Source: Chloroflexota bacterium | GTDB lineage: Bacteria; Chloroflexota; DTOL01; DAOUCN01 | DNA length: 51,064 bases | Assembly (NCBI GenBank): GCA_034431995.1 | Contig: DAOUCN010000125.1 | Coordinates: forward strand, 1-51,064 | Direction: 5' to 3' | In this document: positions 45,307 through 50,260 of the stretch, one piece after another | How positions within the stretch are numbered: the stretch's first letter is position 1 | How the letters are laid out: each line of letters begins with the position of its first letter | Made by a program: the position numbers and the translations under genes | The notes under the pieces: model-generated | The model's input: the letters and a program-made list of their open reading frames with translations, nothing else | Told to the model about the DNA's origin: nothing | Databases searched by the model: none

Positions 45307-45671
45307 GCAAAGTCCTCACGAACGTAGGCATAGACGTAGTGCCGGCTGTCAGGCTGCGAATCGACGTGCGCGGACAGCTTGAACTTGACGTAGGGGGCCT
45401 TGAAGTCCGGCGGATAGAGCACCTGCCACTGTTCGGAGACGACGTTGGTGCAGAGATCGTCGTTGGCAGCCCAGTCCTGGAACTGATCCTCCTGGATGCC
45501 GCCGGCCCACTCCAGGGTGTACTTCGGCGTGCCTTCCACGGACGTCGCCTTGCACCAGATCGACTCAATCCGGACGTAGTCCCGCATCTTGATGATGCCG
45601 GAGATCTCGTAGTAGTTCGGCGTCACCAGCTGGTTGTCGAACAGCTTCATGATGACCAGATTCTGCGGCAT
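45303..45671 (-). CDS. Hypothetical protein (122 aa)
   Basis: ORF 45303..45686 trimmed to the ATG at 45671 (TGATG coupling); ATGA coupling downstream. Confidence 0.65.
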   Translation of the reverse strand: MPQNLVIMKLFDNQLVTPNYYEISGIIKMRDYVRIESIWCKATSVEGTPKYTLEWAGGIQEDQFQDWAANDDLCTNVVSEQWQVLYPPDFKAPYVKFKLSAHVDSQPDSRHYVYAYVREDFA

Positions 45672-46990
45672 CAGAGGGTCTCCCATCCGGTCTCGTCGCG
45701 GATTTGGGCGATCCGGTCCCGTCCAACGAGGTATTCCCCCTCGAAGAAGGTCCGGCCATCCCAGATGTGACTCAGTTTCACGTCAAAGGCTCCAGTCTTC
45801 TGGTCCGACCGTACCATGCCGAAGCCCTGCTGCCAATTCTGGAGTGCGTTGACGCCCGGAACGAACCCATCGAGGCGGCAGATGCACCCGGGCGAGTACC
45901 CCACGTACTGAGAAGCGCCCTGATGGTCGTGCAGGGTGCGGGACGCCTCCCCAACACGGTGGATGTGGCCCATCATGAAGCTGAATCGGACCGTTTCGAG
46001 CACCGATTCGAGGGTCTGCTGGGTCTTGGGGCGGTGTTTGTCGCCGTGGATGAAGGCGAAGTGGGGCGTCAGCCAGTAGATGTTGTCCGGATAGCCCCCA
46101 ACGTAGGTCACGCCGAGGCTCTTGAGGTCGATCATCCCCGGCACGGAGAGGAGTTTCTCGTTCTCGTTGAACGGGGAGAGCAGCGCGGAGTAGGGCAGGG
46201 CCACGCTGGCGGCCAGATCCCATAGTCGGCGCTCGTGGTTGCCTTCCAGGTAGACGATCTCAGCGTCCGGCGACGCGATCCGTAGCTGCGCGAGCCACCA
46301 ACCGAGCTCTCGGAGGGCTGGCTGAAGGGTAAAGAAGTGCTCCGGACGTCGGCGGTACTTGATAGTGAACTCGGTGACGTCCACCATGTCCCCCAGGAGG
46401 ACGATCTTGGTCGGCCGGGTGCGCTCCGCGACCTGGACACAGACGTCCCAGGCCCGTCGGTCGTGCATCGGGGTCAGACGCCCGGTCTTCAGGTCCCGCT
46501 CGTAGCCGTTCTGCGAGTCCGGGATGACGAGCGTGACGTCTTGACTCTTCGGCGCTTCGCGCCTCAGAGGGCTTGGGGTTTGAGCATTCCGACGGATGAT
46601 GAAGGTGACCGGCTTCGGGGTCTCGGGGGCGGCGGCAGCGCGGACGAACCAGACCTTGATCTGGTAGGCGGGGCTCCCGTCGGCCAGGGTCCAGTTGTTC
46701 CCGAGCCAGTGATCGACCGTCCAGACGGCCGGATCGACCTTCAGGAGGGCAAGGAAGTCCTCCAGGGTCGGCGGCGACGTGACGAACGTGCCGGTGGCGT
46801 AAGCAACGTGACCGTCCTGCTCGAATGACGGCGTACGGTTGACTTCGGGTTTGCGGGCACCCGACGCCCGCCAGGCCGCCTTCTGTCGAGACCGGCACCG
46901 ACGGTGCTGGTTCCGAGTGGGCTGGCCCGAACCGGGGTGGATGGGTTCTTTGCAGATCGAGCAGATACCCGCCGGGGTCACGGCGGGCAT
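45671..46990 (-). CDS. Calcineurin-like metallophosphoesterase with an extra N-terminal domain (439 aa)
   Basis: Motifs VIPDSQ, LLGDMVD, EGNHE, FIHGD and MGHIH in canonical order. Element copy i sits in frame in the inter-domain linker. Confidence 0.75.
   Translation of the reverse strand: MPAVTPAGICSICKEPIHPGSGQPTRNQHRRCRSRQKAAWRASGARKPEVNRTPSFEQDGHVAYATGTFVTSPPTLEDFLALLKVDPAVWTVDHWLGNNWTLADGSPAYQIKVWFVRAAAAPETPKPVTFIIRRNAQTPSPLRREAPKSQDVTLVIPDSQNGYERDLKTGRLTPMHDRRAWDVCVQVAERTRPTKIVLLGDMVDVTEFTIKYRRRPEHFFTLQPALRELGWWLAQLRIASPDAEIVYLEGNHERRLWDLAASVALPYSALLSPFNENEKLLSVPGMIDLKSLGVTYVGGYPDNIYWLTPHFAFIHGDKHRPKTQQTLESVLETVRFSFMMGHIHRVGEASRTLHDHQGASQYVGYSPGCICRLDGFVPGVNALQNWQQGFGMVRSDQKTGAFDVKLSHIWDGRTFFEGEYLVGRDRIAQIRDETGWETL
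46547..46585 (-). repeat. Dispersed bipartite element, copy i (inside the phosphoesterase CDS, in frame)
   Basis: Minus-strand reading GCTCAAACCCCAAGCCCTCTGAGGCGCGAAGCGCCGAAG; hairpin GGCGC-GAA-GCGCC. Encodes ...AQTPSPLRREAPK... Confidence 0.85.
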
Positions 46991-47158: not shown

Positions 47159-47499
47159 CACTCAGTCTCCTTCTTGTTCGCTGCGATGGCTCGATCGATC
47201 TTGTGCTCGATCCGTTCTAGCTGTTTGACGACGTGGGGTAGGGCGCCTTGGATCTCTGCGATCTTCTCGCCGTGTGCGGCTCCGGTCTTGGTCAGTTCGT
47301 TGATCGAGTTGTTGACGTTGGTCAGCCATAGCACACAGCCAGAGCTAATCAAAGCAGCAATGATGCCAAGCACCCACTTGAGGGCCGGGTCCATGCTCGG
47401 GGGCGGCGGGAACTCGTGGTTGTGCTCGTCGAGAACAGTCAGACGTTTACCATGCGGCGTGTGCTCGCTACCGTTGAGTGATTCCGCCGTGTCTATCAT
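47158..47499 (-). CDS. Membrane-anchored coiled-coil protein (113 aa)
   Basis: ORF track; TM segment WVLGIIAALISSGCVLWL followed by a helical tail. Confidence 0.6.
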   Translation of the reverse strand: MIDTAESLNGSEHTPHGKRLTVLDEHNHEFPPPPSMDPALKWVLGIIAALISSGCVLWLTNVNNSINELTKTGAAHGEKIAEIQGALPHVVKQLERIEHKIDRAIAANKKETE

Positions 47500-48109
47500 C
47501 CCACTCCCGCATTCGCCGCTCGATGTGTGCCGGTCCCGCTCCTGACTGGCGCAAGTAGCGTGCCAGTGCGTCTCGCTCTGCGTTCTTTAGAGCAGGTGCC
47601 GTCCGTTTGGGCAAGAGGGAACACGCCGAGGCTAGGGCATCGACGAGGTCTACGGTCTGGCCCATCGGGTGGGAGCGGAGCTCAGCCAAGAGCTCGACCT
47701 GGCTATCCTGCACGAACAGGCGGCCCTGCGCTATGATGGGCTGGAGGATCGAGCGGTTGCGGAAGTACTTGTCGATCTTGTTGGACTGCGGGACGCCCTG
47801 GAGGTTCAAGCGCTGGTTGGTGAAGCGGGCCTCGCGCCGGAGGGAGCCGCCGAAGAGGGAAGCCAGGCCGTTCTCCTCGATGCCGAAGATGATGGGCCTG
47901 AACTGGATGTTGATGCGGAAGATGTTCTCGATGATCCGGTCGGTCGAGGCGCGCTCGGCCCAGGTGTTCAGGACGAAGATCCGCTGCAGCCAGTCCTGAC
48001 CGACGGTCACGACGGCGGTGCGGGCGCGGGTCTTCTTCACGGTCTGCTTCCCGCCAGCGGGGTCGCAGAACGAGACGATGTCCGCGAGGCTACTGACGGG
48101 CTGTTCCAT
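47468..48109 (-). CDS. terL: Terminase large subunit, C-terminal RNase-H-like nuclease half as a separate ORF (213 aa)
   Basis: Acidic triad context FCDPAGG, FGIEENG and VDLVDAL in the usual order. Confidence 0.75.
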   Translation of the reverse strand: MEQPVSSLADIVSFCDPAGGKQTVKKTRARTAVVTVGQDWLQRIFVLNTWAERASTDRIIENIFRINIQFRPIIFGIEENGLASLFGGSLRREARFTNQRLNLQGVPQSNKIDKYFRNRSILQPIIAQGRLFVQDSQVELLAELRSHPMGQTVDLVDALASACSLLPKRTAPALKNAERDALARYLRQSGAGPAHIERRMREWDDRHGGITQR

Positions 48110-48392
48110 GTCGTGCGCGGCGGATCACACGCACTCGCCGAATGCAGCCGTGCGGGATGGCGAAGTAGCCGTTGGCCTCGTCGTGGCCGCGTCCAGCATC
48201 GCCCAGGAGGAGCGACAGGACGAGGTCCTTCTTGGTGGAGCCGATGATGTAGCCGGCTGCGCGGCAAGCCTGAGAGGTGGCGCGAGAGGCTTCCCCGCCG
48301 TCGGTCCAGGCGCTGTAGACGGCCGGATCGTCGAACTCGACTTCGATGATGGAGAACTGAGGCAGTTTGGGACCCTTGGTCAGTTTGGTCAT
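48090..48392 (-). CDS. Hypothetical 100-aa ORF nested between the two terminase halves
   Basis: ATGA overlap with the ATPase-half stop and a 20-nt overlap with the nuclease-half start. Protein-like composition. No domain recognised. Confidence 0.5.
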   Translation of the reverse strand: MTKLTKGPKLPQFSIIEVEFDDPAVYSAWTDGGEASRATSQACRAAGYIIGSTKKDLVLSLLLGDAGRGHDEANGYFAIPHGCIRRVRVIRRARHGTARQ

Positions 48393-49543
48393 GCGGACCG
48401 TCCTTTCCGGTGTTTGAAGAACTCGTCTCGTCCCAGTAGACGATCATACGAGTGCTTCGTCAAGCGCTGTCCCCGCAGGGGCTTGTGCTCGGCGGAAGGG
48501 GTAAAACGGGCGCGGTCCTCGGTCAGGGCGTCGAGCGGGGACTCCTCGAAAACCAGTTGATTATCCAGGACTTGGAAGCGACGCAGCAGCGTCATGTCGA
48601 AGTCCACGAGGTCGGGGTCCCCGGCGGAGTTCATGTAGAGGAGGGGAAACATGGTCCGCATCTCGCGCTGCAGGCGCTGCAGGGACTCTAGGGAGAATCG
48701 CTCGGGGAAGATGGGCTTGCCGTCCTCGATGGCCGCGCGACGCATGACCTCGACGGAATCGTCGGTGTCCATCAGCTGCTCGTAGATGTCTCCGATGGCC
48801 CAGCGCGTCCCAGTGATGATCTCCAGGGACTTGTCGGGATCATCCATCAGGGCGCGGCTGGTGGCATGCCAGTCCACGGTAGACTGCATGATGGTGGGGG
48901 AGTTGGCCGACTCCAAGTCGATCAGGTCGTCGAAGTAGTGAACGTTGAAGTGGTAGCCGGCGATGGTGCCGCCCACGCCGATGGTCTCGACCGAGGCCTC
49001 CTTGAAGATCTCCGGACGGGGCAGGAGGATGCGCTCAGCGTTCCAGTATTTGGCCTGGCGCTTCGGCTCGTCCCAAACGCGGTCGGGCCAGAGGGCCTTC
49101 AGAATCTGGTTGCTCTCGTAGACCATCATGATCTCGGAGAGGGTGGAGCGCGAGAGGTCGGCTGTCTTGGAGCCGAGGAGGATGCGGGTCGAGCGGCCAT
49201 CGGAGTGGCCGAGGTTGCCGACGCCGTCGGGGAACCAGACGTTGGCGCCGTCCGGCTGGATCAGCAGGTGAATGACGGCCGCCTTGCAGATGGTCGTCTT
49301 CAGGTGATCGCGGGGCATCAGCAGGAGTTTCCGGTAGGGCGGAACCCTCTGGAGCCAGTTGCAGACGGGGAGATGGAGGGAGGGCGAGAGGAGGCTGTAG
49401 CCCATCACCCCCTTGGCGAAGACGAAGAGGTTCGCCTCAGCCTGCTTCTTGAAGTCCGCGACGAACTGCCCGGCCTGTGTACTACCAGCCTGACGAACCT
49501 GGCCCGTGCGCGCGTCGAGGACCAGTTCCCTGGCGTCCATCAC
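48389..49543 (-). CDS. terL: Terminase large subunit, N-terminal ATPase half (384 aa; start GTG 49543 or ATG 49540)
   Basis: Walker-A-like MPRDHLKTT, Walker B HYFDDLID, coupling motif ITGTRW, and FPERFSLESLQRL...LYMNS. Confidence 0.8.
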   Translation of the reverse strand: MMDARELVLDARTGQVRQAGSTQAGQFVADFKKQAEANLFVFAKGVMGYSLLSPSLHLPVCNWLQRVPPYRKLLLMPRDHLKTTICKAAVIHLLIQPDGANVWFPDGVGNLGHSDGRSTRILLGSKTADLSRSTLSEIMMVYESNQILKALWPDRVWDEPKRQAKYWNAERILLPRPEIFKEASVETIGVGGTIAGYHFNVHYFDDLIDLESANSPTIMQSTVDWHATSRALMDDPDKSLEIITGTRWAIGDIYEQLMDTDDSVEVMRRAAIEDGKPIFPERFSLESLQRLQREMRTMFPLLYMNSAGDPDLVDFDMTLLRRFQVLDNQLVFEESPLDALTEDRARFTPSAEHKPLRGQRLTKHSYDRLLGRDEFFKHRKGRSA

Positions 49544-49632
49544 TCCCAGTCATCCAGGAAGAACCCCCAGATGCCGAGGCCCACGATCGTGACGACGCAG
49601 CCGACGAACAGCCCGAGCAGGAACATCGCCAT
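49540..49632 (-). CDS. Small membrane peptide (30 aa, MAMFLLGLFVGCVVTIVGLGIWGFFLDDWE)
   Basis: Translated by hand; TGATG coupling at both ends, between the small and large terminase genes. Confidence 0.45.
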   Translation of the reverse strand: MAMFLLGLFVGCVVTIVGLGIWGFFLDDWE

Positions 49633-50180
49633 CAGACCTCCTCCGCTTCTGCCGCTTCCTTCTCAGCCAGGAAGGTGGCGAACTCGTCTACGTTGGCCAG
49701 GGGAACGGTCTCGAACTCCGCGTCGATGACCGGGACGGGCTTGCCGCTGGCCTGGGCCACGGCGGTGACCATCGCCTGCAGGGAGCGCTCGTCCAGGGAA
49801 ATGTGGATGGTCTTCTCCTCGGACTTGTGCTCGACCTTGGGGTAGAGACGGTCCACGTCGGTGGAGATGTCACGGGCCGCCTGGAGGCGAATGGAGTCCA
49901 TCGCCTTGTCGTTGTCCCGGAGGTTGACCTTGAACTCGAAGTTCTTGATGACCTCCTGGCGGATGCGCTCCAGGAAGTCCGCGAAGGTCATGTCGTGCAG
50001 GGAGCTCCGGAGCTCGTTCAGCTGCGCGACGAACAGGGGGGAGTTGATGATGGTGGAGACGCGGTTCGCGTGGTAGCCCAGGGCGTCCGCGATGTCCTTG
50101 GTGCGCTTGCCGGCGAGCACCATGTAGAGCATCAGCTGATGCCTCTGGTTCACCCGAGCAATCTTATTCGCGCCTGACAT
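49632..50180 (-). CDS. Small-terminase-like HTH protein (182 aa)
   Basis: ORF 49632..50249 trimmed to the ATG at 50180. HTH-like GKRTKDIADALGYHANRVSTI. Lies immediately upstream of terL. Confidence 0.6.
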   Translation of the reverse strand: MSGANKIARVNQRHQLMLYMVLAGKRTKDIADALGYHANRVSTIINSPLFVAQLNELRSSLHDMTFADFLERIRQEVIKNFEFKVNLRDNDKAMDSIRLQAARDISTDVDRLYPKVEHKSEEKTIHISLDERSLQAMVTAVAQASGKPVPVIDAEFETVPLANVDEFATFLAEKEAAEAEEV

Positions 50181-50195
50181 GTGCCCCCGATAGTA

Positions 50196-50242
50196 CAAGG
50201 CGGCCGGACTTACCTCCCAGTAAGAGGGGGCCGACCGCCTTG
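50196..50242 (-). promoter_or_regulatory. Structured leader stem-loop between the promoter and the small-terminase start
   Basis: CAAGGCGGCCGG (50196-50207) pairs with CCGACCGCCTTG (50231-50242) at 11 of 12 positions. Inner CTTAC/GTAAG stem. Confidence 0.5.
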
Positions 50243-50243
50243 T

Positions 50244-50260
50244 GCCCAAACCCCAGAGCC
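50244..50260 (+). repeat. Box-only partial copy (k) of the dispersed element
   Basis: GCCCAAACCCCAGAGCC; no adjacent hairpin. Confidence 0.5.

Follow-up and report, generated by a model that had tools for sequence, protein, structure and literature searches.

A probable two-subunit large terminase, with separately encoded ATPase and nuclease chains flanking a cargo slot, in a clade of uncultured podovirus-like phages

In models of phage DNA-packaging motors (T4 gp17, P74-26, HK97, and phi29), the ATPase and the nuclease of the large terminase (TerL) are domains of one chain, and the relative movement or tethering of these domains matters for translocation and for the timing of the cut. Here, we analyze the contig DAOUCN010000125.1 (GenBank assembly GCA_034431995.1, deposited as a Chloroflexota bacterium), on which the two domains are encoded by separate genes, terL-N (ATPase) and terL-C (nuclease), with a 100-amino-acid (aa) open reading frame (ORF), denoted the cargo ORF, between them. 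The window analyzed is the entire contig of 51,064 bp. Comparison with related loci makes it highly probable that these genes encode a two-subunit large terminase, in which a separately translated ATPase and nuclease flank a slot for cargo genes, and that this architecture was inherited by a whole clade of phages.

Both outer ORFs match the TerL profile phrog_38, in adjoining regions: terL-N aligns with profile positions 266-524 (E = 8e-31) and terL-C with positions 548-719 (E = 3e-18), in agreement with the initial annotation of this locus, made from the sequence alone, which had taken the two ORFs for the ATPase and nuclease halves of TerL. A Pfam search with all three ORFs gave zero matches. 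TerL-N contains a deviant Walker A motif (PRDHLKTT), a Walker B motif (HYFDDLID), and a coupling motif (ITGTRW), and residues R78, H80, K82, D205, D206, G245, T246, and W248 are invariant among its homologues. In a Foldseek search, its AlphaFold2 (AF2) model (predicted local distance difference test score, pLDDT, of 86) matched the TerL of the T7-like phage PhiV-1 (8dgc_E, E = 5e-10) and the ATPase of T4 gp17 (2o0h, E = 1e-6). In TerL-C, the catalytic residues D16 (FCDPAGG), E78 (FGIEENG), and D154/D157 (VDLVDAL) are invariant across the clade, and the protein aligns to residues 384-533 of the intact TerL of the archaeal virus vir526; a search of PDB sequences with the TerL-C profile yielded chance matches only. 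All six of these motifs had been quoted in the initial annotation, and the three minus-strand ORFs lie where it had placed them. The ratio of nonsynonymous to synonymous substitution rates (dN/dS) is 0.13-0.24 for terL-N and 0.20-0.23 for terL-C, and both halves are evidently under purifying selection. The locus has both domains of a TerL, ATPase as well as nuclease, although not on one polypeptide.

Homologues of the ATPase were collected by a word-indexed protein search in which proteins of up to 672 aa were eligible. The best 120 of the 274 homologues (42-87% identity) are all 316-455 aa long and, given that eligibility, comprise the ATPase only. Loci from 7 further contigs, 80 loci from IMG/VR, and 15 loci from GTDB genomes were added; the IMG/VR loci were found using the ATPase alignment as the query, a single ATPase protein having given none. 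Every locus was scored with Hidden Markov Models of the two halves. In each of the 44 loci nearest the window (at least ~36% identity; 39 from ENA, JGI, Logan, and IMG/VR, and 5 from GenBank metagenome-assembled genomes, MAGs), the ATPase and the nuclease are encoded in separate ORFs, which are always adjacent and in the order N then C. Uninterrupted terL genes, which the initial annotation had proposed to look for, were found in more distant relatives and in none of the 44 clade loci: all 49 such relatives with both domains detected (IMG/VR, ICBM1, and vir526) have a single ORF of ~500-590 aa, for example, 514 aa in the cultured Lentibacter phage ICBM1 and 570 aa in vir526.

The closest loci share the full three-ORF layout. 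One phage present in independent ENA and JGI assemblies (L002 and L003) has ORFs of 384, 96, and 219 aa, with the ATGA overlap of the first two kept and an ATPase 74% identical to that of the window, and a Logan assembly (L004) has the same layout, with ~86-87% identity in the ATPase and 84% in the nuclease. These loci bear directly on the possibility, raised in the initial annotation, that two compensating sequencing errors broke a single gene, and on the related ones of another assembly artefact or of a defective phage in decay. The contig is metagenome-derived and binned in a MAG of 424 contigs, which would make such an origin conceivable; it is nonetheless rejected as extremely improbable, because the layout is identical in independent assemblies, the split recurs in the 44 loci from many studies at 36-87% identity (ENA, JGI, Logan, IMG/VR, and GenBank), and purifying selection acts on both halves and, in the comparison with L002, on the cargo ORF, where indels are multiples of three.

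The split forms constitute one clade in the maximum-likelihood tree computed for the ATPase domain (SH-aLRT support of 99), and the nuclease tree agrees (98); the sister group of this clade is a small group of intact forms (L045, L046, and L048). The GenBank podovirus MW202554.1 is split as well (551 + 62 + 229 aa). As a separate observation, its ATPase subunit, annotated merely as "terminase large subunit", carries at the conserved YMN motif a 235-aa LAGLIDADG-type intein (L001 3754-4458; CSRPD...LWLGGIIDGEAGI...VVSGYLSRN, followed by C), so that this terminase is both split and intein-bearing. The ATPase tree places MW202554.1 apart from the clade, with weak support, and a single clade of all split forms including MW202554.1 is not rejected by the nuclease data (approximately unbiased test, p-AU 0.76); the split thus arose once or twice. 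Taken over the whole clade, the comparisons indicate that the split is an old, inherited, and selected state, not a recent disruption.

The anatomy of the cut was examined by aligning the concatenated halves to intact relatives. In intact TerLs, the LYMN motif is followed by a short beta-hairpin that leads directly into the strand with the first catalytic aspartate (DPA). In the split clade, TerL-N keeps the hairpin and continues into a clade-specific extension of ~50 residues before the stop codon (consensus RG..L....YD....R.E(Y/F)(L/F)R), which is conserved throughout the clade and has no counterpart in single-chain relatives, and TerL-C starts ~10-14 residues ahead of the DPA strand. The YMN motif is separated from the DPA strand by 46 aa in intact vir526 and by 77 + 14 aa in the window; the clade-specific tail makes up the excess. 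Compared with intact TerLs, no part is lost or doubled, which was the question that the initial annotation had put to such an alignment. The cut point is homologous in all clade members and falls within the inter-domain linker, as had been proposed. Conservation runs to the stop codon of TerL-N, and that of TerL-C begins at the start codon.

Other sequence elements also set the split lineages apart. TerL-C of these lineages, MW202554.1 included, ends with (A)RY(L/W)R...IE(R/K), a motif absent from the intact sister proteins examined, and the TG.VRQAG hairpin of TerL-N is conserved in the split clade and lies outside the region aligned to intact TerLs. The TerL-N tail has low pLDDT values (42-73), which is consistent with partner-dependent folding. 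This tail may be where the nuclease subunit docks, and the C-terminal motif of TerL-C could be a second interface or, alternatively, a portal-docking element; we propose that the tail, the YLR...IE motif, and the TG.VRQAG hairpin may form the non-covalent interface.

The gap between the halves was measured in 40 split loci, from the TerL-N stop to the TerL-C start. It ranges from -19 to 2128 nucleotides (nt), with a median of 274 nt, and is too small for an ORF in 11 of these loci; in nine, the stop and start codons overlap (for example, as TGATG in L007), leaving no room for an intron. The slot holds 1-7 unrelated small genes in some relatives and is empty in others. Its occupants are non-homologous between relatives and include helix-turn-helix proteins, an RNase_T exonuclease, an M15 peptidase, a calcineurin-like phosphoesterase (Metallophos), Cys-rich ORFs, and many unknowns. 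Judging from this turnover of gene content, the site between the halves behaves as a cargo slot.

Several individual occupants deserve mention. The gaps of L020, L038, and L049 contain a calcineurin-like phosphoesterase of 255 aa, an M15 D-Ala-D-Ala peptidase-like protein of 119 aa, and an RNase_T-family exonuclease of 206 aa. The cargo ORF of L005 (4232-4549; identical in L027) encodes a Cys-rich protein with an HNH-like pattern, CELCG...FEFDHN...CTDCH, a likeness noted by eye only, as the protein has no Pfam match at E <= 0.01; it is possibly a homing endonuclease.

Within the window, the cargo ORF begins on the terL-N stop codon, as ATGA (48389-48392), and its end overlaps the start of terL-C by 20 nt (48090-48109), both as first described. 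The initial annotation erred, however, in assigning the three ORFs to different frames: terL-N and terL-C share one frame, in which three TGA codons separate them, and the cargo ORF alone is shifted, by -1. A profile of GC content at third codon positions (GC3, 0.78-0.88) places the coding frame in that of the cargo ORF from ~48380 to 48170 and then back in that of the flanking genes; the cargo ORF is truly coding. With the halves in one frame and only TGA codons separating them, a single fused TerL might be produced by recoding, that is, by TGA read-through, by paired -1/+1 frameshifts, or by bypass of the ~280-nt insert, and terminase bypassing has been proposed for the Streptomyces phage Hau3 (PMC10732093). 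We consider recoding very improbable here. The GC3 of the in-frame connector is that of a non-coding frame; TGA terminates 25 of the 38 genes of the window and hence is a true stop; and no slippery heptamer is visible at the junctions. Among the 40 split loci, TerL-C is offset from TerL-N by 14/14/12 across the three frames, as at random, so that the shared frame in the window is a coincidence, the in-frame stops between the halves of relatives include TAA and TAG, and gaps of up to 2.1 kb contain real genes.

The initial annotation had also considered that a group I intron or some other mobile insertion is removed at the RNA level; excision of such an element, or of a different self-splicing one, would restore one terL ORF. 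Such elements are known from this gene, given that group I introns split terL in Jug phages (PMC12880540), that the Staphylococcus phage Twort terminase is annotated as three coding sequences (PMC13729910), and that, as the intein of MW202554.1 shows, mobile elements do target terL. For the present locus, this explanation is scarcely credible. Rfam searches, which took up the proposal to look for group I intron structure, detected nothing relevant in the whole window and no match even at E <= 10 over 47300-49700; the folding energy of the insert is ordinary (minimum free energy z = -0.25); and the insert is protein-coding over its full length. Furthermore, members of the clade that lack any insert (L007, L017, L021, L030, L037, L043, and others) still have two ORFs, with the stop of the first overlapping the start of the next in another frame, and protein conservation reaches the very stop and start codons at which the halves end and begin. 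An intein or split intein was likewise rejected, with no Pfam Hint match, no block A or HN-Cys/Ser/Thr motif at the junctions, and too little space there for an intein; the initial annotation had excluded an intein on account of the supposedly different frames, a wrong premise for a conclusion that the missing Hint domain and intein blocks uphold.

The cargo ORF itself has orthologues in the same slot in the nearest lineages only, namely, L002/L003 (65-68% identity), L004 (39%), and the fragment L011 (~30%). Its dN/dS is 0.25 relative to L002, consistent with purifying selection, and 0.67-0.76 relative to L004. In the comparison of the window with L004 (4155-4463), identity is 39% for the cargo ORF, against 86% for terL-N and 84% for terL-C on either side of it; this suggests that the cargo gene alone underwent replacement of its allele or diversified rapidly. 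Among 1.8 billion representative proteins, a profile search identified 567 distant relatives of 75-120 aa (E <= 1e-3). Of 77 sampled members of this family, 73 match phrog_25889, a family without an assigned function, a profile against which the protein of the window does not itself reach E <= 0.01. The AF2 model obtained with the family alignment (pLDDT 88) is a five-stranded beta-barrel with one short helix. Foldseek matched this model to uncharacterized phage proteins, including one of Pelagibacter phage HTVC025P (E = 6e-6 to 7e-4), and, in the PDB, only weakly to Sm, LSm, Hfq, bL19-like, and SH3-like folds (E = 0.06-0.7, template modeling score ~0.45). A search of PDB sequences with the cargo-ORF profile returned chance matches only, and tblastn of one family member against GenBank phages returned none. 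No HNH, GIY-YIG, or LAGLIDADG match was found in Pfam or PHROG, in line with the initial annotation, which had recognized none of these motifs.

As to the role of this protein, the initial annotation had proposed a two-polypeptide terminase with an accessory subunit. The two polypeptides are borne out by the comparative evidence; the accessory subunit is not. In the strongest form of that proposal, the 100-aa protein would be an obligate third terminase subunit, an adaptor bridging TerL-N and TerL-C, and its nested, translationally coupled position between the halves, its retention in the slot in four related lineages to ~30% identity, and its confidently predicted fold as a compact domain all speak for such a role. 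We nonetheless judge it improbable, because the cargo ORF is missing from 36 of the 40 split loci, nine of which have overlapping terL-N and terL-C and the others unrelated genes; because it diverges far faster than its neighbors (39% versus 86% and 84% identity in L004, with the elevated dN/dS given above); and because the family occurs elsewhere without a neighboring terminase, two other located members sitting among small unknown genes. The cargo ORF seems to be swappable, dispensable cargo and not a terminase subunit.

The features of the packaging region are collected in Table 1. Upstream of terL-N, a hydrophobic mini-ORF is joined by TGATG overlaps to the putative small-terminase gene at one end and, through the ATG at 49540, to terL-N at the other, so that the packaging genes would make up one chain of translationally coupled ORFs; short ORFs are found at the same position in L004 and L007. 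The sole sigma-70-like promoter near the packaging genes (50295-50267) lies upstream of the putative small-terminase gene, and no terminator was found between the terL ORFs. A gene for a 439-aa metallophosphoesterase (45671-46990) is located directly downstream of terL-C.

Table 1. Features of the terminase region, in coordinates of the window
Feature	Coordinates	Strand	Remarks
Putative small-terminase gene	49632..50249	-	Upstream of the mini-ORF
Hydrophobic mini-ORF, 30 codons, MAMFLLGLFVGCVVTIVGLGIWGFFLDDWE	49540..49632	-	Direct sequence reading
terL-N (ATPase-only large-terminase subunit)	48389..49543	-	384 aa from GTG 49543; likelier 383 aa from ATG 49540
TerL-N N-terminal hairpin motif TG.VRQAG, aa 13-20	49484-49507	-	R17 and G20 invariant in 27 sequences
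terL-N clade-specific C-terminal tail, ~aa 335-384	48392..48541	-	Alignment of split versus intact TerLs
Cargo ORF, 100 aa, between the terminase halves	48090..48392	-	Own-frame GC3; orthologues in the same slot
terL-C (stand-alone RNase-H-fold nuclease subunit)	47468..48109	-	213 aa; phrog_38 match
terL-C conserved C-terminal motif ARYLRQSGAGPAHIERR	47513..47563	-	Y185, R187, I196, and E197 invariant

The remainder of the contig is a podovirus-like genome, with genes for a family-A DNA polymerase, a primase/helicase, an exonuclease, and a Sak4-like protein, virion genes for the portal, the major head protein, an internal virion protein, and a tail-fibre-like protein, and an amidoligase/GATase pair in addition to the metallophosphoesterase. 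The contig is part of a 3.5-Mb MAG, the only TerL-like sequences of which are those in the window; no further TerL is encoded on the contig. The ends of the contig (1-85 and 50979-51063) repeat one another over ~85 nt (score of 82 of 85) and hold 4-5 copies of a 17-nt tandem repeat, CACAGCGACCGAGGTGT, in unequal number at the two ends, which fits a circular or terminally redundant genome with the assembly broken within the repeat array. Of the phage-sized clade contigs from GenBank MAGs (L099-L103), one each is binned with Dehalococcoidia, TA06, and Maribacter, and two are binned with Nitrospira. Because these phyla are unrelated, inference of the host from MAG binning was rejected, and the MAGs concerned probably contain mis-binned phage contigs.

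We propose that, in this clade of uncultured, roughly 50-kb podovirus-like phages, TerL-N would serve as the packaging ATPase and TerL-C as an RNase-H-fold nuclease, translated as separate polypeptides. Transcription from the promoter that lies upstream of the putative small-terminase gene would cover all the packaging genes, whose translation would be coupled through the TGATG, the ATGA, and the 20-nt overlap. The subunits would reassemble non-covalently into a working motor-nuclease, the likely contacts being two elements specific to the split lineages, the basic/aromatic TerL-N tail of ~50 aa and the C-terminal YLR...IE motif of TerL-C. Several points weigh against this proposal. The physical association of the chains and the activity of the split enzyme are predictions from conservation, and a MAG-binned contig is no guide to the host or to the viability of this particular phage. 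No obvious Shine-Dalgarno sequence precedes the ATG of terL-C (48109), which is located 20 nt upstream of the cargo ORF stop. Finally, the retention of the cargo ORF in one subclade, to ~30% identity in L011, means that it could have some position-linked function.

Whether the splitting of TerL was adaptive, with the nuclease as a dissociable subunit, rather than neutral is a further question, and we think an adaptive origin rather unlikely. If it were adaptive, the ATPase ring could translocate DNA with no nuclease covalently tethered to it and, by way of the clade-specific tails, recruit one for initiation and headful cuts only. Separation of the domains might also blunt host sensors that, like SeAvs3 (PMC13601566), need to hold the ATPase and the folded nuclease at once, and the open site might serve in addition as a landing pad, protected and expressed late, for accessory genes, the beta-barrel ORF among them.

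Irrespective of its origin, the clade amounts to a natural experiment on covalent linkage, since the domains have remained on separate chains over deep divergence (~36% identity). It poses three questions: is a covalent link required, by which surfaces are the halves joined, and does the nuclease move along with the motor? TerL is also the standard phylogenetic and completeness marker for Caudoviricetes, and phages of this clade may be scored as terminase-less or fragmented given that gene callers yield hypothetical proteins without a Pfam match. The slot between the halves, as a hotspot of gene turnover, is a place to look for new accessory functions. The two-gene architecture is apparently unpublished: no description of a constitutively two-polypeptide TerL was found in the searchable literature, where the searches yielded cases of introns, inteins, and short bypassed inserts, along with the "ATPase subunit" and "endonuclease subunit" names of P2 gpP and gpM. 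These names denote the large and small subunits, not a split TerL.

Among known systems, the canonical TerL of the T7/SIO1 type (T7 gp19; PhiV-1 8DGC chain E; PHROG 38), and at a greater distance T4 gp17, has the same modules in the same order, with the same motifs and D/E/D residues, and the location of terL-N downstream of a putative small terminase is also alike. The window differs from this type in that the modules are separate genes and polypeptides, and from the intact relatives examined in the ~50-aa ATPase tail, the TG.VRQAG hairpin, and the YLR...IE motif of the nuclease.

Genes in pieces that arose through free-standing homing endonucleases offer another parallel. In T4, the topoisomerase genes 39 and 60, with mobA, form a gene in pieces, and the nrdA gene of Aeromonas phage Aeh1 is reportedly split by mobE, as Friedrich and colleagues are said to have described in PNAS in 2007. 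In common with these, an essential enzyme is encoded in two translated, conserved pieces, a small ORF lies in the gap, and the gap is a site of gene turnover. In contrast, no homing endonuclease was found in the gap of the window, the ORF of which lacks a nuclease motif; many gaps in the clade are empty, and only the L005 cargo is HNH-like. Moreover, the split is fixed clade-wide and not polymorphic between close relatives.

Genes fractured with split inteins (Dassa et al. 2009, PMC2677866) likewise have a third ORF between their two parts, and inteins are known from TerL, as in cyanophage Mic1 (PMC7156551). Unlike these, the tail of TerL-N has neither a Cys/Ser/Thr nucleophile context nor an intein N-terminal block, and TerL-C lacks an HN-Cys motif and has only 14 residues ahead of its catalytic strand; without intein blocks at the junction, the halves in the window cannot be joined by trans-splicing. 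The intron-split terL genes of the Jug phages (PMC12880540) and of Twort (PMC13729910) resemble the window in being annotated as several ORFs, but there RNA splicing restores the message, whereas the window has no detectable intron RNA and its insert-free relatives are still split. The packaging ATPase of phi29, gp16, has a vestigial C-terminal domain with a nuclease fold (PMC7672431) and demonstrates that covalent attachment to an active nuclease is not required for a packaging ATPase to work. In phi29, however, the nuclease activity was lost and the packaged DNA is unit-length and protein-primed, whereas the phage described here has kept an active-looking nuclease as a separate subunit.

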